A stretch of DNA of 64,000 nt from Verrucomicrobiota bacterium (lineage in GTDB: Bacteria; Verrucomicrobiota; Verrucomicrobiia; Limisphaerales; Palsa-1400), in contig JBEKYR010000008.1 of assembly GCA_049510745.1 (NCBI GenBank), forward strand, positions 64,001 to 128,000, read 5' to 3'. The position numbers and the translations under genes are program-made. Below, in pieces: positions 393-51,120 of the stretch. A model generated the notes under the pieces. That model worked only from the letters and a program-made list of their open reading frames with translations, was not told the origin of the DNA and did not search any database. The first letter of the stretch is position 1. Each line of letters begins with the position of its first letter.

Positions 393-565
393 TTTTTTTT
401 CCTTCCGTAGGTTTTTCGCCTTGACGCCCCTGTGTTGTAATCGGGCCAGGATGACTACAAGCCATCTCATACAGGGGCATCGAGGGAGCGGCCGGAGAAC
501 TGAGCCGGCCAACAGGCGCAAGCCGGGCCTGTTTGCCGTAGCTCGGTCCCGCCGGGCGAAGGCGG
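393..565 (+). repeat. Repeat A copy 1 (promoter/leader of terL)
   Basis: Highly similar to 4998-5180; contains TTCCTTCCGTAGGTTTTTC, TTGACG, the ATG of MTTSHL and a terminal GCCGTAGCT...GCGAAGGCGG hairpin-type repeat. Confidence 0.9.
399..452 (+). promoter_or_regulatory. Conserved 19-bp motif plus TTGACG-N20-CAGGAT putative promoter
   Basis: Same arrangement at 5004-5057 (+) and 51067-51120 (-). Confidence 0.55.
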
Positions 566-2064
566 ATGCCTGTGAAAACCCACAATTTCAACTCCGCCAA
601 CAGCTTCTCGGATACCAGAAAGATTGGGTTGACGACCTCTCCCGCTTCAAATTCGGCCTCATGGCCCGCCAAACCGGCAAGGACTTCTCCGCCGCCTACG
701 AAGGCGTCTTTGACTGCCTCCTCCACGACGCCAAGGGCCAAAAAACAGACTGGCTTATCGCCGCCCCCTCCGAGCGCCAATCCCTCGAATCCCTCGAAAA
801 ATGGAAAACTTGGGCGGCCACCTTCAAATCCGCCATCGCCAACTACGAAGAGGAGCGATCCGGCGCCGGAGAAAGCCTCTTATTATCCGCCGCCATCACC
901 TTTCCCCACGGCAGCCGCGTCATCGCCGTCCCCGGAAAACCCGAAACCGTCCGCGGCTTCAGCGCCAACGTCTTACTCACCGAGTTCGCCTTCTTCGAGG
1001 ACCCCGACGCCACCTGGCGCGCCATCGCCCCCAGCATCACCAACCCGCTCCGTGGCGGCGAAAAAAAAGTCAGAATCATCACCACTCCCAACGGCATCGG
1101 CAACAGAGCTTACGACCTCTGGATTAAAAACTATAAGCCAATCAGTGAAGGGAGAATCAGTGAATCAGAGAATGCCCGGCAACTGACTTCCCAATTCACT
1201 GATTCACTGATTCAAACTTCAAAATTGTCTCCGATCTGGTCCTGCCACCTCATTGACATAGAAACCGCCAAAGCTCACGGCCTTCCCGTCGATCTGGACC
1301 AACTCCGCGCCGCCCTCGACGACCCGGACGGCTGGCCCCAGGAATTTGAATGCCAGTTCATCGACGTTCAAACCGTCCTCCTCACCTACGAAACCATCGC
1401 CAGTTGCGAAAGCACGGAGGCTACCAACACCGTCCCGCCCGATTTCTGGTTCGCCAACCGCCACGCCGCCCCACCCCTCGTCATGGGCATCGATTTTGGC
1501 CGCCGCCGCGACCTCACCGTCGCCTGGACCAACCAGCGGCTTGGCGACGTTCAGCAAACCGTCGAAGTCCTCGAACTCGATAATATGTCCACTCCCCTCC
1601 AGGTCGAAATCCTCCGCACCAGAATCAGAAACGTCCACCGAGTCTGTCTCGACTACACCGGCGCAGGCGTCGGCCTTGGCGATTATCTCGCCGGGGAATT
1701 CGGCGAGTGGAACCCCGCCCGGCACAAATTCGGCAAAATCGAGCTTTGCGTCTTCACCCAGCCATTCAAAGTCGAAATCTTTTCAAAACTCCGCATGGCC
1801 TTTGACCAGCGCCTGCTCCGCATCCCCATCTGCCGCGCCATCCGCGAAGACCTCCACACCGTCAACCGCGTCACCAGCCCTAGCGGCCATATCACCTACC
1901 GCGCTACGCACAGTCCGGACGGCCACGCCGACAGATGCACCGCCCTCGCCCTCGCCTGGCGCGCACATCCGGCAACCACCGTCATCGCAGCGTGCGCCGG
2001 CATCCGCCGCCTGCCACCCCACCCCGGAAACCTCTGCCTCGGAAAAGCCGACTACATCCTCTGA
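451..2064 (+). CDS. Mu gp28-like terminase large subunit
   Basis: LLGYQ Q-motif, Walker A ARQTGKD, Walker B-like VLLTEFAF, ITTPNG coupling motif, RNase H-like nuclease motifs GIDFG, LDYTG and HADR; start uncertain (421 or 451). Confidence 0.88.
   Translation: MTTSHLIQGHRGSGRRTEPANRRKPGLFAVARSRRAKADACENPQFQLRQQLLGYQKDWVDDLSRFKFGLMARQTGKDFSAAYEGVFDCLLHDAKGQKTDWLIAAPSERQSLESLEKWKTWAATFKSAIANYEEERSGAGESLLLSAAITFPHGSRVIAVPGKPETVRGFSANVLLTEFAFFEDPDATWRAIAPSITNPLRGGEKKVRIITTPNGIGNRAYDLWIKNYKPISEGRISESENARQLTSQFTDSLIQTSKLSPIWSCHLIDIETAKAHGLPVDLDQLRAALDDPDGWPQEFECQFIDVQTVLLTYETIASCESTEATNTVPPDFWFANRHAAPPLVMGIDFGRRRDLTVAWTNQRLGDVQQTVEVLELDNMSTPLQVEILRTRIRNVHRVCLDYTGAGVGLGDYLAGEFGEWNPARHKFGKIELCVFTQPFKVEIFSKLRMAFDQRLLRIPICRAIREDLHTVNRVTSPSGHITYRATHSPDGHADRCTALALAWRAHPATTVIAACAGIRRLPPHPGNLCLGKADYIL
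1154..1213. repeat. 60-bp palindrome of GAATCAGT 8-mers, in frame inside terL
   Basis: GAATCAGTGAATCAGAGAAT (1154-1173) pairs 19/20 with ATTCACTGATTCACTGATTC (1194-1213). Confidence 0.9.
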
Positions 2065-2065
2065 A

Positions 2066-2180
2066 TGAAAACCGCAGTCTGGTTCAGCAGAGTGTGCGTC
2101 CGTGTTTGTCCGTGCCCATCCTTTCCGTCCTTTTCGTCCTTTTCGTCCCATTTGTCCCATCGCCGTGACCGCCTGGTACC
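2066..2180 (+). repeat. Repeat B copy 1 (10-mer TGTCCGTGTT and 9-mer TTCGTCCT(T/A) arrays)
   Basis: Similar to 4767-4880, including the CAGCAGAGTGT start and CCCATCGCCGTG..CTGGTAC end. Confidence 0.85.
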
Positions 2181-2250
2181 CCAGCCCATCGCTCCAAAAA
2201 ACACGCCCACTTCATCCTTCATCCTTCATCCTTTCCCCCATTCATTGCCC

Positions 2251-2387
2251 CCCAAAATCCCAAGAACCGTCGCAGTACATCCCGGGGAGCGCGCGCGCCC
2301 TCGCGTGCAGCGGTCGGCGCCCCCGCCGACCGCTTCTTCGCTCATAGGCCATCGCTCGGCGGTAAGACCGCGTACGAGAGAGTTGGG
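2251..2387 (-). repeat. REP/MITE-like element family C, copy 1
   Basis: Reverse complement of 50086-50230 and 52453-52590; internal perfect stem GCGGTCGGCG/CGCCGACCGC. Confidence 0.9.
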
Positions 2388-2437
2388 CGCCCCATTCTGG
2401 GTTGACAGGGGGCGCCGCAGGGGGCATTGTCCGAACA

Positions 2438-2544
2438 TGGCGCGAAAGCTTCGCCTGCAATATCCGGGCGCGATTTATCACCCGATGAGCCGCGGCGACC
2501 ACCAGGAGCCGGTCTTTTCCGGCGGTTGCGGCGGGAAACGATGA
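2438..2544 (+). pseudogene. 5' stub of REP-associated tyrosine transposase (RAYT, Y1/HUH)
   Basis: MARKLRLQYPGAIYHPMSRGDHQEPVF matches the typical RAYT N-terminus, then stops; TTGACA upstream at 2402. Confidence 0.8.
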
Positions 2545-2596
2545 TGCCGCTCAAATCAAGTTCAATACTTGTTGCTGGAGAACCCTAAGAAACATC

Positions 2597-3979
2597 ATGC
2601 AACCGGTTCGCAAAACAAAAACGCATTTTGGGATTCCTTACGTTTGGACTCCTGCTGATAAGTCCGCTCAAGCGGCGCTTGAAAAGCAGCGAGGATCAGC
2701 TAGCACGGCTTGGGATGATTATTTGGGGGATCACCAGCAGAATGACTATTTTGGCGACTTGCTAGCCGCTGGAGTTATTAATGGGAAACAGAAGTGGTCT
2801 CAGCGTCCAGAAGAACCTGAACAACGCTTGGCTTTGCTTCAAGCCGACGAACGGCTGTTCCGAAATTGCCAGTTGCGCCTTGATTCGTCTTTGCAGGACG
2901 GACTCTTGCGACTGATTCCAAACGGAATATCCAAACGCGGTGGTTTTCTCTACTACACAGATCGTTTGGATCGGTGCATAGTCTACGACTATCGTATCCC
3001 GCATCATTCACAAAGAGCAGCAAAGGTCATTTCTCTTGTGGACATTCCAGAGCCGGAGTTTCTTTACGATATTGCGACCGCGATTCCCAATGCAGACGAT
3101 GACGTGCGATCTGCGTTGAAAAATGCGCTTGTATATGGGCACAAAATCGTCGTGCATCGTAACACTTTTGTACACGTAGATCGTCGGCGAGACGAGGGAA
3201 CTGCCGGGCCATTTATCGACACACTTATTTTGAACGAGATGCTTCACAAATATGTTTATGAGCATTTTCAAGATTTTGCTGTCGAACGACAGTTTGAAAA
3301 GGCGATGGAGGTCGGAACGGGCAGCGGGATGCTCATTGCCGCGTGCTTCCAAAACCTTCCAGGCATTCGAAGAGTCGTTGCTTTGGACACGGTAATGGAA
3401 TCAGTTCATTGTGCCTACAGGAATGTTCTTGCCAACCATCCTGCATACGGAAAGCTCAGACCAAGCGAGTATTTTGTCTGCGGAAGATTTGATACTGACA
3501 CTTGGCACAAGTACGATGTGGTGTTGTGCAATCCGCCGTATATTCCTCTGAAACCTGGAGCAGAATTAAGCCCGAATGCTACAAGTGCTGTTGGAGGCAC
3601 AGATTTGATGAGTAGCGTTATTTCTGATGCCCCGCTACTCTTGAGTGACCGCGGTTTTCTGTTCATGATTTTTAGCTCGCTCGCGGATTCTGAATTCAAC
3701 CAAGCAATCAACAAAGCCGGCGTGGAATACGCGAACCTTGGACCGCCAACTGGATTCGAGGTGAGATTCGAGGTCGAGGAGGTTTTTGGGGATGGAGACT
3801 GGTTAAACTTTTTAGTTAACGAACGTGGCCTTGTGCATAAGAAGGGGCAATTTCTTCATACCCTTCGATGTGTAGCCATTCATAAGAGCAAAGAACAAGA
3901 ATTCGCCGACGACACCGCCTTATTGGAACGTATGAAACAACTGAACCAAACCTTCGCGGCGATAACGGATGCTAATTGA
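2597..3979 (+). CDS. Class I SAM-dependent methyltransferase, HemK/PrmC-like, with ~190-aa unrecognised N-terminal region
   Basis: Motif I EVGTGSG, motif IV NPPY, P.IDTLIL and GGTDLM..LLSDRG segments; GC visibly lower than host. Confidence 0.8.
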   Translation: MQPVRKTKTHFGIPYVWTPADKSAQAALEKQRGSASTAWDDYLGDHQQNDYFGDLLAAGVINGKQKWSQRPEEPEQRLALLQADERLFRNCQLRLDSSLQDGLLRLIPNGISKRGGFLYYTDRLDRCIVYDYRIPHHSQRAAKVISLVDIPEPEFLYDIATAIPNADDDVRSALKNALVYGHKIVVHRNTFVHVDRRRDEGTAGPFIDTLILNEMLHKYVYEHFQDFAVERQFEKAMEVGTGSGMLIAACFQNLPGIRRVVALDTVMESVHCAYRNVLANHPAYGKLRPSEYFVCGRFDTDTWHKYDVVLCNPPYIPLKPGAELSPNATSAVGGTDLMSSVISDAPLLLSDRGFLFMIFSSLADSEFNQAINKAGVEYANLGPPTGFEVRFEVEEVFGDGDWLNFLVNERGLVHKKGQFLHTLRCVAIHKSKEQEFADDTALLERMKQLNQTFAAITDAN

Positions 3980-3980
3980 T

Positions 3981-4505
3981 ATGAAAGATACAGTAATGTT
4001 GTGTTTTCGAGATCTTATCACAGCGCCTGGAGATTCTATCGCGCAACATAAGAGATTGATCGACGATTACGGGTATTGTTGGTGGGGATGGTGGATGAAG
4101 CCCATTGAGGACGTTCCTAATGAGCTGCTTCTCAAAATCGTTCGCACAAATTCAAACCATGGCAGTGATATATTCTTATACGATTGCGGCCAATATGGTT
4201 TATACCGTGCTACGCTCACCGATGTGGCAATTTCACCAACGAATGTGGGCATGTCTTCCCCCGGAATTGAGCAGACGCCGGAATATTATGTTCACGTCAA
4301 ATGTCGCGCTTGGTTCAAGCTTGAGGGAATAGATCTAGTGCCAGAAAGCGATGCGAAGCTACACCTCATAAAGTATGTAGATTTTCCAAGCTGGCGGCTT
4401 GAGGAGACTCACGACCATTTCAAGGGAAAGAATATCAGCAACTTTCAAGAACTCGACCAAATGGCGGTAACGCTTTGGCATATTGAACTTCCTGAAAATT
4501 TGTGA
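3981..4505 (+). CDS. Hypothetical protein with a GYCWWGWW motif
   Basis: Low-GC ORF starting 1 bp after the methyltransferase stop (alternative overlapping start at 3969). Confidence 0.75.
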   Translation: MKDTVMLCFRDLITAPGDSIAQHKRLIDDYGYCWWGWWMKPIEDVPNELLLKIVRTNSNHGSDIFLYDCGQYGLYRATLTDVAISPTNVGMSSPGIEQTPEYYVHVKCRAWFKLEGIDLVPESDAKLHLIKYVDFPSWRLEETHDHFKGKNISNFQELDQMAVTLWHIELPENL

Positions 4506-4617
4506 TTGCGTCTCCCGCGGCCGTGATTGAGTGAATGAAGGGGTCATGAAGGGGTCAGTTCCTAGCAATGCCGCATTGTGAGTTGACAGGGAGGAGCGGG
4601 AGGGTGCATTTCCGAGC

Positions 4618-4760
4618 ATGGCGCGAAAGCTTCGCCTGCAATATCCGGGCGCGGTTTATCACCTGATGCGCCGCGGCGGCCACCGGGAGCCGCTCTTCCT
4701 GGAGAAGTCCGACCGGCCAATGTTTCCGTCCACCCTGGGCGAGGCTCCTGCCGAGCCGCT
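4618..4760 (+). pseudogene. Second 5' stub of RAYT transposase
   Basis: MARKLRLQYPGAVYHLMRRGGHREPLFLEKSDRPMFPSTLGEA, then runs into repeat B; direct repeat of 2393-2520. Confidence 0.8.
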
Positions 4761-4766
4761 TTGGCA

Positions 4767-4930
4767 AACCGCGCTGTGCCTCAGCAGAGTGTCCGTCCAT
4801 GTTTGTCCGTGTTTGTCCATGCCCGTCCATTTCGTCCTATTCGTCCTATTCGTCCCATCGCCGTGGCCGTCTGGTACGAGCTTATATTTTTTTTGTGATC
4901 TTTGTGATTTTTTGCGGCAATTCATCTTTG
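4767..4930 (+). repeat. Repeat B copy 2 followed by a 9-mer array ending TTGCGGCAAT
   Basis: Similar to 2066-2180; the 9-mer module resembles the reverse complement of 51215-51250. Confidence 0.8.
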
Positions 4931-4997
4931 GTTGCGGCTTGCCGCGCCGTGAAAATCTGTGTCCATCTGTGGCCCGCACCCTTGGCCAATTTTTCTC

Positions 4998-5180
4998 TTT
5001 TTTTTCCTTCCGTAGGTTTTTCGCCTTGACGCCCCTGTGCTGTAATCGGGCCAGGATGACAACAAGCCATCTCATGCAGGGCCATCGAGGGAGCGCCGAG
5101 CGAACCGGGCCGGCCAACAGCCGCAAGCCGGGCCGCTCCGCCGGCCTGTCCGCCGTCGCTCGCTCCCGCCGGGCGAAGGC
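4998..5180 (+). repeat. Repeat A copy 2 (promoter/leader of Gp27-like gene)
   Basis: Highly similar to 393-565. Confidence 0.9.
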
Positions 5181-5224
5181 CGGCAAATCCCGTCAACCCT
5201 CACGCACCAACGAAAGCACATAAT

Positions 5225-5971
5225 ATGTCACGCACTGGAAAAATAGCCCGCCTCCCAACCGCCATCAGGGAACAACTCAACGCCAGAATCGAACAAGGCG
5301 AGCCGTCAATTCACCTCGTCGATTGGCTTAACTCCCTGCCCTCCGTCAATGCCGTCCTCGACACATACTTCGCCGGCCGCCCCGTCACCGACGGCAACCT
5401 CTCTGACTGGAAACACGGCGGCTACAAGGACTGGAAGGCCGAACAAGCCGCCGCCGCCATGTTCGAGAAACTGTGCCAGACTCCTGCCGAAAAACTCACC
5501 GCTCTCCAAAGCGGCCTGATCGACCAGATGGCCACCCTCTACGCCGCCCAACTCCTCTCCGAGATGCAAAAACCAGCGCCCCACGCGGACGACGCCGCCC
5601 GCGCCAAAATTTGGCGCGAATTCCGCCAGGCCTTCGCCTCTCTGCGACGTTACCAGTTCGCCACCCTCGCCATCCAGGACCGCCTCAAGTTCCAGCCCAT
5701 CGAGACCGAAGCCACAGAATCATTCCAACTCACCGAAGACGACAAACGCCGTCGCGTTGAACATCTCCTCGGCGTCGCGGGCGGCCCCGACGCCAACAGA
5801 TTCGACGTAAAAACTCAAACCTGGTCCGGTCCAAACGCCGCTGTCATGAACCGGCAACACCGGAAACTGCTCCTGAAAGCCGCCAAAGAAGCCGGAATCG
5901 ACCTGGAAAACGAAACCCAAAACCCGGACAAATCCGGAGAAATCCGGCCAATTCCGGCCAAATCCGGCTAA
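5225..5971 (+). CDS. Mu Gp27/DUF3486-like (small terminase-like) protein
   Basis: N-terminus GKIARLP..IREQLN.R..GE....LVDWLNS..NLSDWKHGGY; paralogue at 50419-51036; lies in the same island as terL. Confidence 0.65.
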   Translation: MSRTGKIARLPTAIREQLNARIEQGEPSIHLVDWLNSLPSVNAVLDTYFAGRPVTDGNLSDWKHGGYKDWKAEQAAAAMFEKLCQTPAEKLTALQSGLIDQMATLYAAQLLSEMQKPAPHADDAARAKIWREFRQAFASLRRYQFATLAIQDRLKFQPIETEATESFQLTEDDKRRRVEHLLGVAGGPDANRFDVKTQTWSGPNAAVMNRQHRKLLLKAAKEAGIDLENETQNPDKSGEIRPIPAKSG

Positions 5972-5980
5972 ATCGGGCCA
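5921..5980 (+). repeat. 10-bp tandem array (AATCCGGCCA-like, 6 units)
   Basis: AACCCGGACA AATCCGGAGA AATCCGGCCA ATTCCGGCCA AATCCGGCTA AATCGGGCCA. Confidence 0.9.
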
Positions 5981-6013
5981 AAAAATGAAATTTCGTTGAC
6001 GAGGCCGCCTTCC
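5980..6013 (+). repeat. 34-bp direct repeat, right copy
   Basis: Identical to 314-347; contains the gap -35 box. Confidence 0.95.
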
Positions 6014-6023
6014 CGGCTAAAAT
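5996..6023 (+). promoter_or_regulatory. sigma70-type promoter of gap
   Basis: TTGACG-N16-TAAAAT. Confidence 0.65.
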
Positions 6024-6042
6024 TTGTGGCCAACTTCGGTGA

Positions 6043-7125
<1,083 letters not shown>

Positions 7126-7132
7126 TCCTCCC

Positions 7133-7717
7133 ATGCGCATCATCGCGGGCAGCGCCGGGGGGACGATTCTGCGGGCGCCCAAGGGCTTCGACGTGCGGCC
7201 CACGCCCGACCTGGTTCGGCAGGCGGTCTTCAACAGCCTGGGCCGGTGGGTGGCGGGGGCGCGCGTGCTGGAATTGTTCGCCGGCACGGGCGCGCTCAGT
7301 TTGGAGTGCCTGAGCCGCGGCGCCGCGCTGGCTGTTTGCGTCGAGAAATCCAGCCGCCACGCCCAATTCATCCGGCTCAACCTCGAACACTCCCGCCTGC
7401 CCGCCGCCGCGCTGCAAATCCAGGCGCGGGACGCCTTCGCCGCCGTCCGCCAACTGGCCGCCGAGAATCGACAATTCGATTTGGTCCTGGCCGACCCGCC
7501 CTACGGCGAAAAAAACGTCGGCCGGCGCTCGACCTCGTACGCCCAACAACTGCTCGACGATCCCGATCTGCCCAAATTATTGCGCCGCGGCGGCCTGTTC
7601 ATTTTGGGCCACACCAAGCGCGACACCCTGAGCCTTCCGGCAAGCTGGGAGGAAACAAAGATGCTAAAACACGGCGACACCGTGATGCGCTTTCTGCGGA
7701 GCCACTTTGAACCTTAA
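7133..7717 (+). CDS. rsmD: 16S rRNA m2G966 methyltransferase
   Basis: MRIIAG, RPT...R.AVFN, LFAGTG, DPPY. Confidence 0.92.
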   Translation: MRIIAGSAGGTILRAPKGFDVRPTPDLVRQAVFNSLGRWVAGARVLELFAGTGALSLECLSRGAALAVCVEKSSRHAQFIRLNLEHSRLPAAALQIQARDAFAAVRQLAAENRQFDLVLADPPYGEKNVGRRSTSYAQQLLDDPDLPKLLRRGGLFILGHTKRDTLSLPASWEETKMLKHGDTVMRFLRSHFEP

Positions 7718-7755
7718 ACTTTGAACTTTGAACTTTGAACTTTGAACTTTAAACT
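7705..7755 (+). repeat. Heptamer tandem repeat (CTTTGAA, ~7 units)
   Basis: Read directly; spans the rsmD stop and the intergenic region. Confidence 0.95.
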
Positions 7756-7761
7756 CATCCC

Positions 7762-8133
7762 ATGCAGTTCCAAATCATCTTCAATCCGACCAGCGCGGCC
7801 GAGTTGGCGAAAATGCCGCGGGAATTGCAGCTTCACATCTTGGGTGAATTCCGCGGCCTGCCGCACGAGGTCTTGAAAAGCGACCCGCATCACTTCGGCC
7901 GCCTGGAGCGCGCGGGCAAGACCCTCCATCGGTTTCGCCTGGGCGACTACCGCGTCTATTTCGAGCGGCACGAACTGGGGGTGGTGGTCCACCGCATCCT
8001 CAGCCGCAACACGCTCAAGGATTTCCTCTTTCGTTCCAGCCTGCCCACCGGCGAGGACGAAGCCTTGCAGGAAAACCCGAAGTTTTGGGAAATGATCGAA
8101 TCCGCCCGCCTGACCCCGCCCAGGAAAGACTGA
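7762..8133 (+). CDS. RelE/ParE-like protein
   Basis: A..EL.K.P and LHRFRLGDYRVYF RelE-type signature. Confidence 0.7.
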   Translation: MQFQIIFNPTSAAELAKMPRELQLHILGEFRGLPHEVLKSDPHHFGRLERAGKTLHRFRLGDYRVYFERHELGVVVHRILSRNTLKDFLFRSSLPTGEDEALQENPKFWEMIESARLTPPRKD

Positions 8134-8158
8134 CAGGGCTTGTCAACGAAAGCCGCCC

Positions 8159-8776: not shown

Positions 8777-8872
8777 AACCAATAACTTCGACGCGCAGAA
8801 TAGCACAGGGCGTTCCCCGATGTCAACGCGCACTTGCCAACGCCCCCGCGGCGGAGTTAAGATGCCGGCCTT

Positions 8873-10339: not shown

Positions 10340-10365
10340 TCTCAACCTCCCAAATTGTTTCACCT

Positions 10366-10809: not shown

Positions 10810-10815
10810 CGCGCC

Positions 10816-11121: not shown

Positions 11122-11213
11122 CAGGCAGTTTAGGCCAGGCGGCTGGCGAAAGAAACCGAAAAACAGCCGTTCCTCGCCCGAGTGCGCTTTGAATCCCAAT
11201 CCCAAGAAGTCGC

Positions 11214-11241: not shown

Positions 11242-11247
11242 GGCGGC

Positions 11248-11952: not shown

Positions 11953-11962
11953 TGGTTAGTAA

Positions 11963-40253: not shown

Positions 40254-40271
40254 CGCCGACGCCACCATGCC

Positions 40272-40742: not shown

Positions 40743-40771
40743 GAAACGCAAGCGCCCCGCGGCCGGCCGGA

Positions 40772-41545: not shown

Positions 41546-41645
41546 ATACGTTGTCTTATGTGCTGTTCATGTATCAATATGCAGCACAAAGGGGGTAAAA
41601 TGCAACAAAAATCTTTTGTGAGGCAATCCCTTACAGCAGAGGGGT

Positions 41646-41673
41646 TTGACACGGGGCATTGCCGGGTTACTTT
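41646..41673 (+). promoter_or_regulatory. Putative sigma70 promoter of the second uvrA
   Basis: TTGACA-N16-TACTTT. Confidence 0.5.
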
Positions 41674-41680
41674 TCGCTTG

Positions 41681-44638
41681 ATGTCCGCACCGCCACGCGC
41701 CTGCATTCGCCTCCGGGGAGTGCGGCAAAACAACCTGAAAAACGTCGATCTGGACCTGCCGCTGCGCCAATTGGTCGTCCTGGCTGGTTTAAGCGGCTCC
41801 GGCAAGAGTTCGCTGGCATTCGACACCCTTTTTGCCGAGGGACAACGCCGCTATATCGAAACCTTTTCCCCATACGCCCGCCAGTTTCTGGACCGGATGG
41901 ACAAGCCGCAGGCCGACAGCATCGAAGGCATTCCCCCCGCCATCGCCATCGAGCAGCGCAACACGGTCAAATCCACCCGCTCGACGGTCGGAACGATGAC
42001 GGAAATCACCGATTTCAGCAAGTCATTCTGGCCGCAGGTGGCGCAACTTTACTGCCGCAATTGCGGCCAGCCGGTGCAAAAGGACACGCCCGCCCAAATC
42101 TGGTCCGCCACGCGCGCCAAGCTGGGAGAGGCCGAGGTCCTGGTGACTTTTGACCTGGCCCTGAGCGCGAAGTTTTCGATGGAAGACTCGCTGGCGCTGG
42201 TCGCCCGCCAAGGCTACCGGCGGCTCTTGCTGGAAGGGGCCGTCATCCCGTTGGAGGAAGCCGCCAGCCGGCTGAAATCTGCGCCGGGGGCGTCTCTGAC
42301 AGTCCTCCAGGACCGTGTCAAGTTAAGCGGGCCGAACCGGGCGCGCTTTGTGGAAGCCTGCGAGCAAGCCTATCATTTTGGCCAGGGCAAACTGGCGGCG
42401 CGGCCGGTCCCGCTGGGCGCCCCGGAGGCGGCCGCTCCGCTGCTCCTGTTTTCCCGCGGATGGCACTGCGCCCAGTGCGACATCGAATATAGGGAACCGG
42501 CGCCGGCCATGTTCAGTTTCAATCATCCCCTGGGCGCCTGCCCGGCCTGCCGCGGGTTCGGACGCATCATCGCCATCGACTATGAGGCGGCCATTCCCGA
42601 CGAGGCGAAGAGCCTGGCCGGCGGAGCGGTCAAACCGTGGCAAACCCCCGCCAACGCGGAATGTCAAGACGATTTAATGAGGTTCGCCCGCCGGCGCAAT
42701 GTGCCGGTCGATGTCCCCTTTGCCGAGCTGCCCCGCGAGTGCCGCGATTGGGTCATCGAAGGCGACCCCGGTTACGGCCAGGATGCCGCCCACCAGTGGC
42801 CGCGCGCCTGGTACGGAGTCAAGGGTTACTTCCGCTGGCTGGAATCCAGGGCCTACAAAATGCACGTCCGCGTGGCGCTCTCGCGTTACCGGATTTACAA
42901 AATCTGCCCCGACTGCCAGGGGACCCGGTTCCGCCCCGAACCGCTGCTTTACCGCGCCGGCGGGCTTACCCTGGCCGAGTTTTACCGCTTGCCGGTCCGC
43001 CGGGCGCTGGAGTTCATCGACTCTCTGCTGGCGGGGTGGAAGCGGCCAAACACCCCGGACCCGGTGGCCCTGGCACTGGGCGAAGTGCGCTCGCGCCTGG
43101 CTTATCTGGAGGGGGCCGGCCTGGGTTACTTGAGCCTGGACCGCGCCACCCGCTCGCTTTCCGGCGGAGAAACGGAGCGGGTCAACCTCACCGCCTGCCT
43201 CGGCTCGCGTCTTGTCAATACTCTGTTTGTTCTGGATGAGCCGAGCGTCGGGTTGCATCCGCGCGACACCGCCCGCCTGGTGCGCCTGGTCCGGCAATTG
43301 CGCGACGCCGGCAACACGGTGGTGGTCGTCGAGCACGAGGCCAGCGTCATGCGGGCCGCCGACCAGATCGTCGAGTTAGGCCCGGGTCATGGCGAATCCG
43401 GCGGGGAAATTGTTTTCCAGGGGACCTGCCGCGAGATTTTGCGGGCGCCAAAGTCGTTGACCGGCGCCTACCTCTCCGGACGCAGGCAGATTGAAGTTCC
43501 GCGCCGGCGTCCGGTGGATTTGAAGGGCGGGAGCAGATTGGCGTTGCGCCACGCCACCCTGCACAATTTGCGCGATCTCACCGTCGAAATTCCGTTGGGC
43601 CGCCTGGTGGGAGTCACCGGGGTGAGCGGGTCGGGCAAAAGCACGCTGATTACCGAGCTGCTGGCGCCGGCTCTCGCGGCCAGGTTGCAACCCGGCGCGG
43701 CCGCCGCGGCGGAGGAAAGCGATGACGAGGTGGCGGACGAAGCCGGTTTGCGGGGTTCGCGTGGCTCCGGGCCAATCGTTGAAGGGCACGAAAACCTCGG
43801 CCGGGTCGTTGCGGTGACCCAATCGCTTCTGGGCCGCACCCCTCGTTCCAATCCGGCGGTGTATATCGGGGCATTCGATGAAATCCGCGCCTTTTTCGCG
43901 CAAACGGATGCCGCCCGACAAAGGGGCCTCGGCCCCAGCGCGTTCAGCTTCAATTCCGCCCAAGGCCAATGCGAGCGGTGCCGCGGGGCCGGCTTTGAGA
44001 AGATCGAAATGCAGTTTCTGAGCGATGTCTTCGTTCGATGTCCCGAATGCAACAGCCGCCGTTACCGGGCGCATATCCTGGAGGTCGAAGCCACGCGGCC
44101 CGCCTCATCGCCGCGGCAAAGCTGGAGCATCGCCGACCTGTTGGAGGCGACGGTGGATGAGGCTGTCGGTTTTTTGGGCGCATTTTCCGGATGCCGCCCC
44201 GCCGCCAGGGCGGTGGAGAGTTTGAAATGGTTGCAGGAGGCCGGCTTGGGGTATCTCCGGCTTGGCCAGCCCATCAATACCCTCTCGGGCGGCGAGAGTC
44301 AGCGGCTTAAACTGGTGAAGCATCTGGCGGAGGCCGGCCAAAACGCAGGGGGGCCAGCAGGCAAACCGATTCTCTTTATCTTCGACGAACCGACGACCGG
44401 CCTCCATTTCGACGATGTCCGCATTCTCCTGGCAGTGTTCCAGCGCCTGGTGGATGGGGGCCATTCTGTCCTGGTTATCGAGCACAATCTGGATGTCATC
44501 AAGTCCGCGGACTGGCTCATCGACCTTGGGCCGGAGGCGGGAGAAGAAGGCGGGCGGATAGTGGTCCAAGGAACGCCCGAAGAAGTGGCGGCTTGCGGCA
44601 TCAGCCATACCGGGCAGGCGCTGGCCGGGACGTTATAA
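41681..44638 (+). CDS. uvrA: Excinuclease ABC subunit A, unit 2
   Basis: GVRQNNLK, GLSGSGKS, EGQRRYIET, LSGGE, FDEPTTGLH. Confidence 0.92.
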   Translation: MSAPPRACIRLRGVRQNNLKNVDLDLPLRQLVVLAGLSGSGKSSLAFDTLFAEGQRRYIETFSPYARQFLDRMDKPQADSIEGIPPAIAIEQRNTVKSTRSTVGTMTEITDFSKSFWPQVAQLYCRNCGQPVQKDTPAQIWSATRAKLGEAEVLVTFDLALSAKFSMEDSLALVARQGYRRLLLEGAVIPLEEAASRLKSAPGASLTVLQDRVKLSGPNRARFVEACEQAYHFGQGKLAARPVPLGAPEAAAPLLLFSRGWHCAQCDIEYREPAPAMFSFNHPLGACPACRGFGRIIAIDYEAAIPDEAKSLAGGAVKPWQTPANAECQDDLMRFARRRNVPVDVPFAELPRECRDWVIEGDPGYGQDAAHQWPRAWYGVKGYFRWLESRAYKMHVRVALSRYRIYKICPDCQGTRFRPEPLLYRAGGLTLAEFYRLPVRRALEFIDSLLAGWKRPNTPDPVALALGEVRSRLAYLEGAGLGYLSLDRATRSLSGGETERVNLTACLGSRLVNTLFVLDEPSVGLHPRDTARLVRLVRQLRDAGNTVVVVEHEASVMRAADQIVELGPGHGESGGEIVFQGTCREILRAPKSLTGAYLSGRRQIEVPRRRPVDLKGGSRLALRHATLHNLRDLTVEIPLGRLVGVTGVSGSGKSTLITELLAPALAARLQPGAAAAAEESDDEVADEAGLRGSRGSGPIVEGHENLGRVVAVTQSLLGRTPRSNPAVYIGAFDEIRAFFAQTDAARQRGLGPSAFSFNSAQGQCERCRGAGFEKIEMQFLSDVFVRCPECNSRRYRAHILEVEATRPASSPRQSWSIADLLEATVDEAVGFLGAFSGCRPAARAVESLKWLQEAGLGYLRLGQPINTLSGGESQRLKLVKHLAEAGQNAGGPAGKPILFIFDEPTTGLHFDDVRILLAVFQRLVDGGHSVLVIEHNLDVIKSADWLIDLGPEAGEEGGRIVVQGTPEEVAACGISHTGQALAGTL

Positions 44639-44757
44639 AGTAAAGTGCCATTCGGGAGGCATTTGCCGGGCTAATGTTTGGTCAATTTGCAAGTTTCATC
44701 GGATTAAGCACTTACAATTTATTCATTAAAAATTGCGCAAAATCTGTCGGTCTTCCT

Positions 44758-44785
44758 TTGACAGAAACGCTTACTTATGTATTCT
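44758..44785 (+). promoter_or_regulatory. Putative sigma70 promoter of rpoD
   Basis: TTGACA-N16-TATTCT in an AT-rich intergenic region. Confidence 0.6.
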
Positions 44786-44916
44786 AAGGCGGCACGGGCT
44801 TCAAATTTCGATTAGCGCGAAAAAGTAACCGAAAAAAGAGGCGCCGTGCCTTTCAAATCGGCCAATATGCCGTAGGTTTGAATGAACCTTAACGTTGCAA
44901 TGGTGTCCGAGTTAAT

Positions 44917-46770
44917 ATGTTGCGAAACAGAGTTTATGGGGTAAACAGCCCAAAAGCAGCGCCCAAAGCGGCGCCTGGATTGAAGAAAGGCGCCAAGGAG
45001 GCGCGTTTTACCCTTCAATCCCAGACGCATGACAAGGCTGCGCCCCGCAAAAATGGCTCCTCCGCCGCGGGGGGAGGCTTGCAGCCGCCCCAGCCGGCCA
45101 CGCCGGCTTTGGCCGTCTCCCATCTGCCGGCCACGATTGATTCGCCTGTCGTGGCCGATAAAGTCAACGAATTGCTGCGTTTGGCCCAGGAACAGGGCTA
45201 CTTGACTTACGACGACATTAACGACGCTTTGCCCGATGAATTTGTCACGCCGGAACTGCTCGACGCCATCTATTCCAAGTTGCGCGGATTCGAGGTCGAA
45301 ATTGTCGAGGCGCCCGATTTGGAGCGGGCCAAACCGCAGGCCGAGCCGGAGGAAGAAGACGAGAGCCGCCTGGACATCCTGGACGACCCCGTCCAGATGT
45401 ATCTCCGGCAAATGGGCAAAGTCCCTCTCCTGACCCGCGAGCAGGAAGTCCAGATTTGCAAGCGAATCGAGGAAGGCGAAACCGAAGGGCGCCGCATCCT
45501 CTTTGGTTTCGGGTTCACCGGCAAGGAACACATTGCGCTGGCCGAAAAACTCTTGTGCGATCCGCCCCGCGAACGCTTCGACCGCGTCATTGTCGATAAG
45601 AAAGTCGAAAGCCGCGCCTCGCATCTGAGCGCGTTGCGGCGCCTCATCAAACGCACCCGCGCCCTGGACCAACAACTGGACAAGGCTTACGACCAGATTT
45701 ACGCGGCCCGCGGGAAAGGCCCGACGCCCCAGACTTTGGCCAAGTACCAAAGGCTGCAAAAGGCCCTGCAAGCCACCTTCCCCAAGTTCTATTACAAGCC
45801 CAAGGTGGCGGAGGAAATCATGGCCGTCTCCCACAACGTCGCCGACCAGATCAAATCCACGCTGCGCGCGACCGAGGCGCTGCAACAGCATCGCAAATCC
45901 GCCTCGAACACCGCCCAGCTGGCCGCCGAACGCCAGAAGCTGGCCGCCTTGGAGAAATTTGTCCGCCTGCCGCGCGATCAATTCCTGGTCGCGCACGAGG
46001 CCATGAAAAAAGCGGCCGGGCGGGCCGACGAAGCCAAGTGCGAAATGGCGGCGGCCAATCTGCGCCTGGTCATTTCCATCGCCAAGAAGCACACCAACCG
46101 CGGCCTCTCCTTTTTGGACCTCATCCAGGAAGGCAACATGGGCCTGATGAAAGGCGTCGAGAAATTCGAGTACCAGCGCGGTTACAAGTTTTCCACCTAC
46201 GCCATTTGGTGGATTCGCCAGGCCATCACCCGCGCCGTGGCCGATCAAGCCCGCACCGTCCGCATCCCGGTCCACATGATCGAAGTCATCAACCGCCTGA
46301 TGCGCGTGCAGAAGCGCCTCATGCAGGAGTTGGGCCGCGAAGCGGAGCCGGAGGAAATTGCCGATGAATTGAACCTCCCGGTCGAGAGGGTGCGTTCCAT
46401 CCTGAAAATGGCCCAGCAATCCGTCTCGTTGCAGGCGCCGGTCGGCGACGGGGACGACGCCAGCGTCGGCGATTTCATCGAAGACAAGAAAGCCGCCAAC
46501 CCGTCCGATGTGACCAGCTACAGCCTGCTCAAAGACACGTTGGGCGATGTGCTGGCGACGTTGACCGAGCGCGAGCGCAAGATCGTCGAAATGCGTTTCG
46601 GCCTGGTGGACGGCTACGAACGGACCCTGGAAGAAATCGGCCGTCAGTACAATGTGACCCGCGAGCGCATCCGCCAGATCGAAGCCAAAGCCCTGCGCAA
46701 AATGCGGCATCCGACCCGCCTGCGCCACCTGCAAGGCTTCCTCGACAGCGAAGAAACGATCTTCCAGTAA
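44917..46770 (+). CDS. rpoD: RNA polymerase sigma factor RpoD-type
   Basis: Region 1.1 GYLTYDDIN, 1.2 DPVQMYL, 2 [10 protein letters not shown] and [11 protein letters not shown], 4 TRERIRQIE. Confidence 0.93.
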
Positions 46771-46794
46771 GATGGCACCTCTGAGGGGCGCGCC

Positions 46795-47277
46795 ATGTAT
46801 GCGCGAGCATTCATTGCGTTTGTTGCCTTGCCCGGCGTGGTCGCCGGAGTGGTGCCCGCTTTGCTTGCGTCGGCAGATACGCACCGCCGCGGCGGCCTGG
46901 CTTTCGGTTTCGTATTGCTGGTGCTCGGTCTTGTTCTTCTCCTTTTGTGCGTGAGAGATTTCTTCGTCTCAGGGAGAGGGACGCTCGCGCCCTGGGACCC
47001 GCCAAAACGCTTGGTCGTAGTCGGACTTTACCGGTTTGTGCGCAATCCCATGTATATCGCTGTTCTGGCGCTGCTGGTGGGTTGGTGTCTGGCTGCCGGG
47101 TCTCGTTTGCTTGCGGGGTATGCGGCTGTGGTGGCGCTCGCGTTCCACCTCCGCGTGATCTATCATGAAGAGCCTTGGCTGCGGCGGCAATTCGGAGCCG
47201 AATGGGAGGCTTATTCCGCATCTGTCCCGCGCTGGCTTCCTCGTTTGCATCCGTGGAGCTGTGACAAGCGCACCTGA
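46795..47277 (+). CDS. Isoprenylcysteine carboxylmethyltransferase family membrane protein
   Basis: GTLAPWDPP, GLYRFVRNPMY, EEP.L...FG. Confidence 0.88.
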   Translation: MYARAFIAFVALPGVVAGVVPALLASADTHRRGGLAFGFVLLVLGLVLLLLCVRDFFVSGRGTLAPWDPPKRLVVVGLYRFVRNPMYIAVLALLVGWCLAAGSRLLAGYAAVVALAFHLRVIYHEEPWLRRQFGAEWEAYSASVPRWLPRLHPWSCDKRT

Positions 47278-47453
47278 CCTTTCCGCGCGCGGCGCGCCGC
47301 CGCACCGCAGTGCCTTCGCCTTTCGCAAGGCGGCTTTTGCCAACAGGCCCATCGCCAAGCTGGGGCTTGCAAAAAAAACGCCGAATAGGACTTTACAGGG
47401 GCGGCGGTCGAATTTAAACTGCGGGTTCATAAAAGAACTGATCGAATAGAAAT

Positions 47454-47708
47454 ATGGAAAAAGGCAAGACGATTGCAGGATTCCGATTGCACGAGAGCGA
47501 CACAGGGTCCGCTGACGTGCAAGTGGCCCTTTTGACCGAACGCATAAATCATCTGACCGACCATCTGCAAAAAAATATCAAGGACCACAGCTCCCGCCGT
47601 GGCCTGCTGAAAATGGTCGGCCAGCGGCGCCGATTGCTGGATTATCTCCATTCAACCGACCTGGCGCGTTACCAAACGGTCACCAAGAAGCTCAAGCTCC
47701 GGCACTGA
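47454..47708 (+). CDS. rpsO: 30S ribosomal protein S15
   Basis: [24 protein letters not shown]. Confidence 0.98.
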
Positions 47709-47939
47709 CAGTCTTTTCTCTGGGAAGGTTCTATCCTCGACCACGGACGTGGTCCGATCAGTTTCGTCGGCCCGGAAACGCGAACGGTCCGATGGGCAAG
47801 AGTAACTTCGCGGAAATGAGTTCCGCTGAATCGAGAAATTTCAATCAGCACCGGTCGGGGCGCGCGGGCGGGGCGCCGGCGTCCCGGTTTTGATTGAAGT
47901 TCCTCCACGTCAGCGGGTCGATAACAGTACAGTTCATTT

Positions 47940-50072
47940 ATGGCAGAAAGAGTCACAGCCCTCGTCGGGGGGCATCAAATCATCATCGAAACCGGCAAAT
48001 TGGCAAATCAAGCGGACGGCGCCGTCACCGTGCAACTGGGAGAAACCATTGTCCTGGTCGCGGCCGTGGCGGCCAGCAAGGCGAAAGCGGGCCAGGAATT
48101 TTTCCCATTGACGGTCGATTACCGAGAAAAGGCGGCGGCGGCGGGCAAGTTCCCGGGCGGCTACTTCAAACGCGAAGGCCGGCCCACCGAGAAGGAAATC
48201 CTCACCAGCCGCCTGACCGACCGCCCCATCCGCCCGCTCTTCCCCAAAGGGTGGTTCAACGAAGTCCAGGTGCAGAGCGTGCTGTTGAGCGCCGATGGCG
48301 AAAATGATTCCGACATCCTGACCATTCTGGGCGCTTCGGCGGCGCTGACCGTCAGCGACATTCCCTGGGAGGGGCCGCTGGGCGCCGTGCGCATTGGCCG
48401 GCTGAAGGGACAGTTCGTGGCCAATCCGACCCACAGCCAGATGCGCGACAGCGACCTGGACCTGATCTACGTGGGCAACACCGCTGACACGGTCATGTTC
48501 GAGGGCGCGGCCAAGGAAATTTCCGACGCGGATTTTGTCGCCGCGCTCAAATTCGGCCACGACTGCTGCCAGCCTCTGATCCAGGCGCAACAGGAATTGG
48601 CCGCGCGCGCCGCCAGGAAGAAGCGCGACATTACCGTCAGCGTCGTGCCCGAGGACGTCTTGGCAGAAGCCAAGAAGCTGGCGGGCGATCGGCTGGTTCC
48701 CGCGCTCCTGACCCACAAGAAACTCGAGCGCGAGGCCGAGGTCAAAGCCGTCATGGACGAAATCGGGGCGAAGCTGGTGGAAAAATTCGGCGCGGAGAAG
48801 GTGACCGAAAACGTGCTCAGAGAGGCGTTCTATTATATCCAGAAGGAAACCGTGCGCGGCTTGATCATGAACGAGAACAAGCGTCTGGATGGCCGCGGTT
48901 TTGATGTCGTCCGCCCCATTACGTGCGAGGTGGGCCTGTTGCCGCGGGCGCACGGCTCGGCGTTGTTCAGCCGCGGGGAAACGCAGGCGATCGCGCTGGT
49001 CACGCTCGGCACGACCGAGGACGCGCAGGAATTTGATTCCTACACCGGCGGCGAAACGGAGAAGAAATTCATCCTCCATTACAATTTCCCCACCTACTCC
49101 GTGGGCGAAACCGGGCGCATCAGCGGCCCGGGCCGGCGGGAGATCGGCCACGGCGCGCTGGCCGAGCGGTCGCTGGAACCGATGCTGCCGCTGGAGACGT
49201 ATCCTTACGCCGTGCGGGTGACGGCCGAGATCATGGAGTCCAACGGCTCGACCTCGATGGCCTCCGTCTGCGGCGGGACGCTGGCGCTGATGGATGCGGG
49301 CGTGCCCATGGCGCGGCCCGTGGCGGGCATCAGCATCGGCATCTGCACCGAGCACGACGAGAAGGACAAAATCTCCGCTTACAAATTGTTGACCGACATC
49401 ATCGGCTGGGAGGACGCGTTTTGCGACATGGATTGCAAGATCGCGGGGACGGAAAAGGGCATCACCGGGTTTCAACTGGACCTGAAGCTGCGCGGGCTGC
49501 CCATCGCCATCATTGGCGAGGCCCTGGAGAAGGCGCGCGTGGCCCGGCTGGACATCCTGAAGATCATGGCCGGGACTCTGGCCGCGCCGCGCCCGGAGAT
49601 GAGCAAGTACGCGCCGCGCATCGTCCAGGTCAAGATCAACCCGGAGAAGATCGGGGCGCTCATCGGCCCCGGCGGCAAGAACATCAAGCGCCTGGTCGAG
49701 GAATCCGGCTGCGAGATCAACATCGACGACGACGGCACGGTCAACATCTATTCCGTCTCGGCGGAAGGGATGAAGATCGCGCGCGACGCCATCGAGGGGA
49801 TGACGGCGGAGGCGGAAATCGGCAAGCTCTATCGGGGCAAGGTGGTGACGATCAAGGAATTCGGGGCGTTTGTCGAGTTCCTGCCGGGCCGGGACGGCCT
49901 GGTGCATATCAGCGAACTGGCCAATTTCCGTGTCAAGCAGACCGAAGACATTGTCAAGATGGGCGACGAAATCTGGGTCAAGTGCCTGGGCGTCGATGAA
50001 AAAGGCCGCGTGCGGCTGTCGCGCAAAGCGGCGATGGAAGAGCGCGAGCGCGAAATGGCGCCGAAGACCTGA
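47940..50072 (+). CDS. pnp: Polyribonucleotide nucleotidyltransferase
   Basis: [22 protein letters not shown] and S1 domains; follows rpsO. Confidence 0.98.
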
Positions 50073-50085
50073 GATTGAGCCGGGT

Positions 50086-50230
50086 CCCAAATCCTCGCCC
50101 AACGCGGCCTTACCGCCGAGCGATGACCTATACAAATTGGATGGGAGAGCGAAGAAGCGGTCGGCGGGGGCGCCGACCGCCCCACGCGAGGGCGCATGCG
50201 CTCCCCGGGATGTACTGCAACGGTTCTTCG
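50086..50230 (+). repeat. REP/MITE-like element family C, copy 2
   Basis: Direct repeat of 52453-52590. Confidence 0.9.
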
Positions 50231-50335
50231 GCATCTTCGGAGTTTCCTCCACTTTTTCGGACGGTTGGGGGGTGCCCAGATGTTCTTCTGGTCGGATTCG
50301 GTCGGGCCAAGCCCCCCCTCCCCCCCTTGTCGTGG

Positions 50336-50373
50336 GGTCTGATTTAGTTTGATTTAGTCTGATTTAGTTTGAT
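50336..50373 (-). repeat. 10-bp tandem array (AAATCARACT) downstream of the Gp27-like gene
   Basis: GTCTGATTTAGTTTGATTTAGTCTGATTTAGTTTGAT. Confidence 0.9.
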
Positions 50374-50418
50374 AAAGCATGGTTGGGAACCGCCGCGGAG
50401 GCGGCTTTTCCCGGTTCT

Positions 50419-51036
50419 TCACGCGATTTCAAGAAGCTCCTTGAGGCGCCTTTGCTTGTCTTCCTCGGTGAGAGGGGGCGGGTGCAGTTTGGCTTGATTG
50501 ACTGCCTTTTTGCCCCACTTGACGAACTGCTTTTCGCGTTCGGCCAAGGCGTTGTCGCGCTGGAATTTGAGGCGCTCGCGCTCGAGTTGCACCCAGTCGG
50601 CAGCGTTGTCGGATCGGGAGAGGGTGGCCATTTGCGAGAACAACAAGCGCCAAAGGAGGCGCTTTTCGGGGCCGTCCTGGAGGGAATCGAGACGATGCAG
50701 TTCCAGGGCCAGGCGGGCGGCGCAGAAGGCGCGCAAGCGTTCGTTGAGGGGGCCTTTGGCCGCTTGGGCGAGTTCGGTGGTGCCCTCGATGAGGGAGAGG
50801 GCGGCGTCGGCAGCCTGGTTTTGGGCCAGCCAATCCCGGTAACCGCCCTGGGTCCACTCGGAAAGGTTCTGCGGGCTGATAGGCTGGCTTGCGAAATGGG
50901 CCTTCATTGCGGCCTGGACTGCGGGCTGGGAATTGAGCCATTGGACGAGGGACTCGCCTTTCTCGCCGTCTTGCAGGCGTTGGTTGAGCTGGTCGCGGAT
51001 GGCCAGGGGCAGCCGGGCGATTTTGCCGTTTCTCAT
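50419..51036 (-). CDS. Second Mu Gp27/DUF3486-like protein
   Basis: MRNGKIARLPLAIRDQLNQRLQDGE..LVQWLNS..NLSEWTQGGY; C-terminal LTEEDKQRR shared with the paralogue; GGAGG RBS. Confidence 0.7.
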   Translation of the reverse strand: MRNGKIARLPLAIRDQLNQRLQDGEKGESLVQWLNSQPAVQAAMKAHFASQPISPQNLSEWTQGGYRDWLAQNQAADAALSLIEGTTELAQAAKGPLNERLRAFCAARLALELHRLDSLQDGPEKRLLWRLLFSQMATLSRSDNAADWVQLERERLKFQRDNALAEREKQFVKWGKKAVNQAKLHPPPLTEEDKQRRLKELLEIA

Positions 51037-51066
51037 GCCAACCTCCAGATATTAAAGTCTGAACGT

Positions 51067-51120
51067 ATCATGGCCGGATTTGAGCACCGTTCAGTCAAAA
51101 GGAAAAACCTACGGAAGGAA
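51067..51120 (-). promoter_or_regulatory. Third copy of the 19-bp motif plus TTGACT-N20-CATGAT
   Basis: Reverse complement reads TTCCTTCCGTAGGTTTTTCCTTTTGACTGAACGGTGCTCAAATCCGGCCATGAT. Confidence 0.6.

Follow-up and report, generated by a model that had tools for sequence, protein, structure and literature searches.

The terminase-related genes of the analysed window, a stretch of 64,000 nucleotides from a Verrucomicrobiota genome, are lineage-specific dispersed duplicates of a terminase module and not the core of the particle system to which this module belongs. The particle genes themselves very probably form a domesticated, Mu-derived system with a late promoter, similar to gene transfer agents (GTAs). 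From their sequence, the dispersed duplicates are tentatively regarded as selfish cassettes which bias packaging to their own loci. Given a domesticated system with a late promoter, the chance of such a role is about even.

Terminase genes and motif copies in the window

A sequence-only reading of the window had described an identical 19-mer ahead of each of three genes. Exact copies are indeed present at 399 (+), 5004 (+) and 51102-51120 (-), and no match occurred in 100 shuffled sequences. The following features were identified:

314..347, +: left copy of a 34-bp direct repeat, at the start of the gapA promoter region; flanks the terL...terS composite
399..453, +: late-type promoter copy 1, with dyad 401-411, T-run, TGTGT 431-435, hexamer 436-441 and ATG 451
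451..2064, +: dispersed large terminase gene terL, duplicated from the terL of the resident operon (66-68% identity); Walker A GKD, Walker B LLTE
1133..1221, no strand: palindromic repeat inside terL, an in-frame insertion; a repeat also sits at the corresponding position of the operon terL
2065..4990, +: cargo separating the two cassettes, with a methyltransferase-like ORF (2597-3979), a Pua-like ORF (3969-4505) and two short repeats which we take to be the start of a transposase-like gene
5004..5058, +: late-type promoter copy 2; its 151-nt leader is 89% identical to copy 1
5225..5971, +: dispersed Gp27/TerS-like gene, 248 aa, N-terminal helical domain intact
5920..5982, +: 10-bp tandem array (AAATCCGGNN) where the terS-like gene ends
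5980..6013, +: right copy of the 34-bp direct repeat, immediately ahead of the -10 region of gapA
50335..50377, -: 10-bp tandem array of the AAATCAGACT type, behind the third gene
50419..51036, -: dispersed Gp27/TerS-like gene, 205 aa; its last 19 aa are 95% identical to the operon TerS C-terminus
51069..51120, -: late-type promoter copy 3, with dyad 51118-51108 and hexamer 51083-51078

The two copies of the 34-bp repeat are 100% identical, and such a repeat is unique to the window composite among the 31 modules tested. Three motif copies gave an incomplete picture, since the genome holds 26 of them; variants one mismatch from the core were not found anywhere in the genome. The genome-wide scan, which the earlier reading had proposed, revealed that the motif also stands ahead of two operons, a Mu-like one with portal, capsid and tail genes and one with the order lysis-terS-terL. 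The genes for portal, capsid and tail, of which the window has none, are located on another contig with the same motif upstream.

The core particle system

The core genes are organized in three unlinked loci, namely these two operons, which share the promoter architecture, and an early locus, which contains a repressor, a MuB remnant and Gam but no transposase. Portal, protease, gp36, gp27, gp28 and Gam of the Mu type are all present (PF06074, PF10123, PF07030 and PF07352 among the profiles). MuA was found neither in this genome (94% complete; tblastn with two proviral MuA) nor in four of five relatives, and a contiguous MuA/MuB transposition module was not found in this genome. A Mu-transpos_C match was rejected; the ORF in question is unlinked and has 242 aa.

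The head operon is single-copy and syntenic in four genera of one Verrucomicrobiota family. It is under purifying selection, with dN/dS values of 0.06-0.14 for the capsid in nine of ten comparisons and of 0.14-0.29 for the portal in 11 of 11; constraint on the dispersed genes is weak. The portal tree recovers the genera and points to vertical inheritance, with one same-genus genome breaking congruence. Two of the capsid genes are frameshifted by 1 nt as assembled. A plain decaying prophage was rejected in view of the dN/dS values and the synteny. The capsid label is based on gene position and the ESM Atlas (0.98); the protein has no match among 50,697 phage records or in Pfam/PHROGs, and prediction of its fold failed (pLDDT 37). 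The proposal of a packaging regulon retained by the host, split over several loci and with a shared promoter of the activator type, is supported by the two operons, the early locus without transposase, vertical inheritance and dN/dS, but does not extend to the window genes.

Large terminase

The window terL is open as described (ATG 451-2064) and matches Terminase_6N (E 8e-9), Terminase_6C (4e-5) and phrog_2 (2e-33). The best matches among cultured phages are Mu and Mu-like phages (B3, Alteromonadaceae phage B23 and vB_RhkS_P1) with 29-34%. In the tree, the window terL and the C22 terL are nested together with operon terL from this genus (support 96/88). Both Walker motifs are deviant (GKD, LLTE). 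This swapped pair (GKD...TE) is common to all resident-clade TerL. The Walker B Asp is replaced by Thr/Ser in 19 of 19 of these proteins, accompanied by a change of Ser/Thr to Asp in Walker A. Paired changes of this kind would be the pattern of a compensatory swap, but the motor could also be dead. Three dispersed terL are intact despite about 35% amino-acid divergence and retain all catalytic motifs; their pairwise dN/dS of 0.42-0.45 indicates weak selection.

Promoter architecture

The boxes kept across genera are a dyad, 19 nt, TGTGn and a hexamer, with the dyad about 42 bp ahead of the -10-like box. The suggested -35/-10 boxes (TTGAC-20-CAKGAT) are not conserved outside the genus. Operon promoters with a match come from four genera, and in 15 of 16 of them the motif is in register; copy 1 of the window has this same register, and the two operons of any one genome carry the same motif variant. 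In Mu late promoters the dyad is centred at -43.5, according to the available part of the source (PMC2582627), and the geometry of the window and operon promoters is like that described there. The motif is probably a late promoter which was copied to the cassettes; cassettes take either the late or the early promoter. In 17 copies from one relative, the -10-like box (0.84) is better kept than the spacer (0.55); conservation of the dyad and the T-run in this comparison is circular, as both were used for selection. The value for the -10 box in a second relative is circular, too. A late activator of the Mor/C family was not detected (PF08765, 0 matches at E 0.1). The MuB remnant is the only gene common to all portal-bearing early loci, and no gene in common was found after Gam.

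TerS-like genes, arrays and deleted derivatives

The two small ORFs of the window share 36% identity over 204 aa. Searched singly, neither matched Pfam Gp27. Their proposed relation to Gp27 was nevertheless corroborated by the TerS-like family profile, which matches five phage gp27 proteins (probability 96, E 4e-9). In addition, 20 of 30 family members match phrog_426 (terminase small subunit), and the alignment with gp27 begins at the N-terminus for both the operon and the dispersed TerS. The N-terminal domain is predicted with a pLDDT of 96-98; the predicted model has no PDB match. TerS-like copies form genome-specific clades. The operon terS slot shows rapid turnover and is empty in one genome, as expected under conflict.

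A 10-bp array terminates all 23 motif sites outside the operons and terL and all five full-length dispersed terS genes, while none was found at the two operons. Of the 109 10-bp arrays, most lie without a late motif nearby, so that they may be generic slippage scars. Packaging of the Mu type normally starts at a genome end, and a pac role for the arrays is therefore conjecture.

Cassettes measure 0.4-2.5 kb. Of the 26 motif copies, 21 are located ahead of short deleted derivatives and not of intact genes. The derivatives are 83-93% alike and lie in intergenic DNA. Their frame is open to the TerS tail in 16 of 17 cases, and stop-making alleles are rare (2/40 versus 200/935, p 0.009 in a conservative test); a first estimate of 16.6 expected stop codons was inflated by recombination and was dropped. 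Since the window genes are extra copies and most motifs precede derivatives, a selfish element using helper capsids is favoured, which was one of the two options of the earlier reading.

Spread of the cassettes and possible functions

Motif sites number 26, about 51 and 52 in three genomes and 5 in three others. Promoter and TerS-like cassettes, together with deleted derivatives, expanded independently in several genomes. A comparison of flanks at 36 loci gave a neighbour in common for only one same-genus locus. One module out of 31 showed a target duplication (control 4 of 200), and terminal inverted repeats were absent from the cassettes. Recruitment of downstream host genes by the cassettes was not supported. 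In the literature, we found no earlier paper on this expansion.

As selfish elements, the cassettes would be switched on together with the resident system through their copied, probable late promoter, a dimeric activator binding to the dyad. Particles would form and be loaded with host DNA. The TerS of each cassette would bind the adjacent array with its N-terminal domain and recruit TerL with its C-terminal helix, so that packaging would start at the cassette. New intergenic sites may be reached by microhomology or repeat-mediated recombination instead of a transposase. A more far-reaching version is rather doubtful as a whole. Cassettes of promoter, TerS (with or without TerL) and 10-bp array might be minimal intragenomic parasites of a domesticated phage, which copy an early or late promoter and hijack capsids by packaging drive. 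Their TerS might co-diversify with the array, with non-autonomous derivatives spawned repeatedly across this Verrucomicrobiota family from peat. The resident system of the host might be a Mu-derived GTA with a swapped-Walker terminase.

The same sequence evidence would fit a distributed regulon serving the host, in which many promoter/TerS/array sites are kept as packaging starts and the whole chromosome is transferred. Boxes and open frames are maintained, and a near-complete relative has one site per about 150 kb. The sites also seem to be fixed in the species: each of the 19 metagenome matches with a full promoter falls on a site which this genome has as well, and joints skipping the module were not found in four runs. 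The absence of insertion polymorphism in these data counts against the selfish reading. However, the spacing is random (gap CV 0.98, P 0.64), orientation is unbiased (15/23 versus 55% background), and sister genomes that share the operons show tenfold differences in sites and copy numbers, which makes this explanation fairly unlikely.

A decoy or brake has a low probability. The activator would be titrated by the extra dyads, and packaging by the resident system or by incoming Mu-like phages would be poisoned by TerS-tail peptides or by divergent TerS/TerL. The derivatives retain promoter and frame to the TerS tail but have lost the DNA-binding end, TerS-like copies diversify fast, and related proviruses carrying MuA exist. 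Many copies also persist in genera without this capsid, only some of which have a substitute portal on record; this weighs against the selfish reading, too. Titration, however, requires neither a -10 box nor an ATG, and the dispersed terL keep their catalytic motifs. Moreover, the dyad was not found in seven related viral loci, and neither of two motif matches in viral contigs has the full promoter.

It is likewise not very probable that the copies are near-neutral debris, with recombination copying repeat-rich intergenic DNA and the terminase region being merely a frequent donor. The flanks are a patchwork without fixed ends, the genome is full of other repeats, and dN/dS (0.32-0.83 for the N-terminus of dispersed terS, 0.75 for derivatives) is near 1 in parts; yet promoter and terminase units alone have multiplied, more than once and starting from two different terL lineages, the diverged terL are intact and the derivatives avoid stops. 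Finally, a resident system that has ceased to package DNA (its motor being altered and its particles empty or killers), with a different task for TerS/TerL, for example chromosome cutting in programmed lysis, would agree with the Walker B change, the empty terS slot and the lack of gpF/gpG-type genes between portal and protease, but is improbable given the paired Walker A change, the conservation of portal, protease, capsid and head-tail adaptor, and the retention of Gam in five genomes.

Comparison with known systems

Phage satellites (SaPI/PICI) redirect packaging by their own TerS. Own TerS, borrowed TerL and capsid, and helper-tied expression are proposed for the selfish cassettes as well. 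In contrast to att-flanked single islands, these lack integrase, primase and other replication genes and an att site, and occur in many chromosomal copies; their helper would be the domesticated system of the host. With MITEs and REP-associated repeats they share short, non-autonomous, intergenic deleted derivatives, but they have no terminal inverted repeats, fixed ends or short target duplication, and they derive from a phage promoter and terS.

The resident system has the gene orders lysis-gp26-gp27-gp28 and portal-I protease-capsid-gp36 in common with Mu and Mu-like phages, as well as a repressor divergent from MuB and Gam and, as far as described in the available part of PMC2582627, several late promoters with a dyad near -43. 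It differs in the missing MuA, the cut-down MuB, three unlinked loci, inheritance by genus in single copy, the lack of a detectable Mor/C homologue, the swapped Walker pair and many extra terminase cassettes. In GTAs such as RcGTA and FpGTA of Faecalibacterium, the domesticated phage genes are spread over several operons and replication genes are missing (PMC12946183, available sections). Here, too, several operons are under purifying selection and lack replication or integration genes (no MuA by tblastn), but the ancestry is Mu, and particles and transfer are predictions. TerS of RcGTA and FpGTA is described in the available sections as having no N-terminal domain (PMC6854486; PMC12946183), whereas TerS here retains it and does not show this proposed GTA hallmark (PMC6854486). 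Multicopy cassettes are not mentioned in the same sections of these two papers.

Significance

Why GTAs stay "selfless" is an open question, and theory expects self-packaging cheats. This family offers candidate GTA cheats that number in the tens, and its genomes with naturally high and low copy numbers can be compared. It also provides a predicted activator site, and its paired TerS/array variants allow a direct test of how small terminases of the Gp27 type recognize DNA. The findings further point to a gene-transfer-like system of Mu descent in bacteria that are abundant in peat, and to a terminase whose Walker A/B pair is naturally swapped.

Genome-wide distribution of the late motif

The 19-mer described in the sequence-only reading is present at all three window sites and did not occur in 100 shuffles. 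Its core, TCCTTCCRTARGTTTT, has 26 copies in the genome, with no matches at one mismatch: two stand at the start of operons, three lie in the window and 21 stand before short derivatives of 0.2-0.45 kb. That reading had named portal, head or tail genes behind further copies as the support to look for; portal, gp36 and likely tail genes were found there on contig C23.

Features of the motif-bearing, core and dispersed loci
Window 451-2064: terL, motif at 399(+)
Window 5225-5971: terS-like gene, motif at 5004(+)
Window 50419-51036: terS-like gene, motif at 51102-51120(-)
C23, behind the motif: portal (PF06074), I protease (PF10123), putative capsid, gp36 (PF07030), likely tail genes
C10, behind the motif: lipoproteins, lipase, gp26-like gene, terS, terL
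C3, third core locus: XRE repressor divergent from a small ORF, MuB-like remnant, Gam
C22 (intact), C70 (intact), C3 (fragment): terL behind other promoters
C22, C70, C29, C54 (truncated): terS-like genes behind other promoters

Of the derivatives, 17 belong to a single type, whose end is C-terminal coding sequence of the 5225-5971 gene; another is a closer derivative of that gene and three are others. Copies of the repressor-side promoter, carrying both TGTTATCnGATAACA-type palindromes, stand upstream of the terL-terS pair on C22 and at one of the short derivatives. An orphan C-terminal half of the repressor was seen at G000:C6:33986-34255. No MuA was found in this genome (94% complete) with two proviral MuA proteins (phrog_310) as queries. 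A class 3 lipase (L002:11437-12288) occupies the position of the Mu endolysin, as in related viral contigs.

Identity of the terminase genes

The window terL is an open frame with matches to both terminase domains, as first read. The small ORFs, described there as Gp27-like, hold as Gp27/TerS relatives at the family level: 20 of 30 TerS-like members matched phrog_426 at E < 0.05 (best 4e-6), and the family profile matched five phage gp27 proteins (probability 96, E 4e-9). In one TerS-like structure model the helical domain at the N-terminus is predicted with confidence (pLDDT 96-98); the model found no match in the PDB.

The window and C22 terL cluster with this genus's operon terL (support 96/88), and C70 terL falls, at no firm position, inside the resident clade of operon-type terminases. 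All 19 resident-clade TerL carry Walker A GKD and Walker B [TS]E. Among other TerL rows Walker B is DE in 13 of 14, and Walker A is GKS/T in all four where it was captured. The GKD/[TS]E pair may be a compensatory swap; T4 terminase is reportedly killed by a single Asp-to-Thr change.

The G fraction at fourfold sites is 0.08-0.15 in all eight intact dispersed terL/terS-like genes (the three in the window and those on C22, C70 and C29), a level reached by none of 781 long ORFs; operon head genes form the G-rich extreme (0.57-0.63). Rho-related silencing is one guess at the cause of the low values. Palindromic ATCAGTGAA/TTCACTGAT repeats lie in frame inside terL and portal (window 1133-1221; L001:12690-12770; L002:14190-14265) and separate most operon genes.

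A probable late promoter

The motif is probably a late promoter. Among 27 upstream regions 16 fit the pattern, 15 of them in exact register: an 11-bp dyad (CCnACsGTnGG-like), 19 nt opening with a T-run, TGTGn and a -10-like hexamer. The 11 others are mostly portals within unsplit clusters and more distant loci. The promoter variant is identical at both operons of a genome, and the dyad is centred about 42 bp upstream of the inferred start. In Mu, protein C binds its dyad at -43.5, at promoters without -35 hexamers, according to PMC2582627. A search for a Mor/C activator gene found none. The TTGAC and CAKGAT boxes proposed earlier recur within the genus but not outside it.

Domestication of the core system

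The core system is domesticated. Of the 16 related loci from the species-wide scan, 13 bear the title Verrucomicrobiota or Limisphaerales, and the metagenomes holding the window are from peat and wetland. The portal is present in 13/30 family genomes versus 1/30 others, the capsid in 11/30 versus 1/30, and the repressor in 25/30 family genomes. The head-tail operon is collinear among relatives, with capsid identity of 84-92% in ten genomes, near that of PNPase (87-92%), and 68% in one. By a simple counting method, with dS near saturation, dN/dS is 0.06-0.14 for the capsid (outlier 0.24) and 0.14-0.29 for the portal. In the portal tree this genome pairs with one congener, and two genera represented by four genomes apiece are recovered as groups (support 100 throughout); the other congener, with an unsplit cluster, is at the base. 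The early operon shrank lineage by lineage, ten genomes retaining the MuB remnant, and MuA occurs in one of five relatives, at a separate locus. The nearest viral contigs show 63-65% capsid identity, and two contain MuA. Counting against domestication, two capsid genes have a 1-base frameshift in their assemblies and the neighbourhood of the loci is not conserved. The capsid label itself is putative, based on position and the ESM Atlas.

L080, with L242 (G016), is an unsplit cluster that shares the lysis, terL and tail genes and differs in its head module and its early operon. Other genera of the family hold a second domesticated-looking phage set with an HK97-type portal (L245:7221-11252; L271, L273).

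Expansion of the cassettes

TerS-like genes occur in 26/30 family genomes, with up to about 30 matches each, and their tree, which excludes three truncated rows, splits into genome-specific clades; one genome has three copies that are nearly identical. The genome's own promoter variant reaches about 51 sites in one relative and about 52 in another, while the count in three others is 5 (reversed-pattern controls gave 1-6), and the 40 promoter regions examined lead into terS-like genes or degenerate derivatives.

A terminal 10-bp array ends 23/23 non-operon, non-terL sites and 5/5 full-length dispersed terS genes. Its unit differs for each of these five genes, and operons have none. In all, the genome has 109 tandem arrays with a 10-bp period and phased A-tracts. 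They fall into at least 7 unit types, and for most of them the late motif is absent. The last 19 residues of operon TerS also end one dispersed TerS; in RcGTA the corresponding C-terminal region binds TerL, according to PMC6854486. The operon terS slot is barely alignable across genera and empty in one genome.

Dispersed genes are under weaker selection than the core. Selection on the cassettes is nevertheless not absent: 16/17 derivatives keep their reading frame, alleles that would create stops are depleted (p 0.009), and the -10-like box is conserved better than the spacer in a relative's 17 copies.

Where a genus lacks the Mu portal, an HK97-type portal often adjoins terL (11/30 family genomes). 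These genera also have stand-alone terS-terL pairs of another lineage, and the cassette habit is therefore convergent. In some fragmented genomes neither portal was seen. Three tandem Gp27-like ORFs, common to two genera and evolving slower than cassettes (L058:31-2112, L053:44-2109, L054:1294-3360), are possibly a host-kept locus.

Movement of copies and proposed mechanism

Copy ends are a patchwork of shared repeats without inverted termini, and site orientation and spacing are random. On either side of the 5.67-kb window composite, the terL...terS unit beside gapA, lies one copy of a 34-bp stretch from the gapA promoter region. The ends of this duplication share 9 and 11 bp with the cassette ends, a pattern that template switching would leave. 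No other case of such a flanking duplication was found among 31 tested. The composite also carries a low-GC pair of methyltransferase-like and Pua-like genes (window 2597-4505), flanked by two transposase-start remnants. The full promoter was covered in 19/120 collection matches, all 19 mapping to existing sites at >=99.8%, and no joints skipping the module were seen in four sequencing runs; the copies are thus fixed in this species.

Beyond the sequence anatomy we infer the following course as most likely. Release of the repressor would switch on the early operon, and an activator would then fire both operons and the copied promoters. Particles would form, and cassette TerS would recruit TerL at its own array, so that cassette DNA would be over-packaged and may occasionally recombine into repeat-rich intergenic sites; derivatives would ride on this packaging and recombination. 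Its rivals hold that the cassettes are host-serving packaging starts, decoys or neutral debris, or that the particle does not package.

Relation to known elements

Mu prophage, PICI and MITE were ruled out by the tested features. The core system, with its predicted packaging and transfer by particles, would work like a GTA but lacks the TerS hallmark and is not filed as one. Our searches of literature listings and open main text found no account of this system, and none of terminase cassettes in multiple copies. The novelty lies in the expansion of the cassettes.
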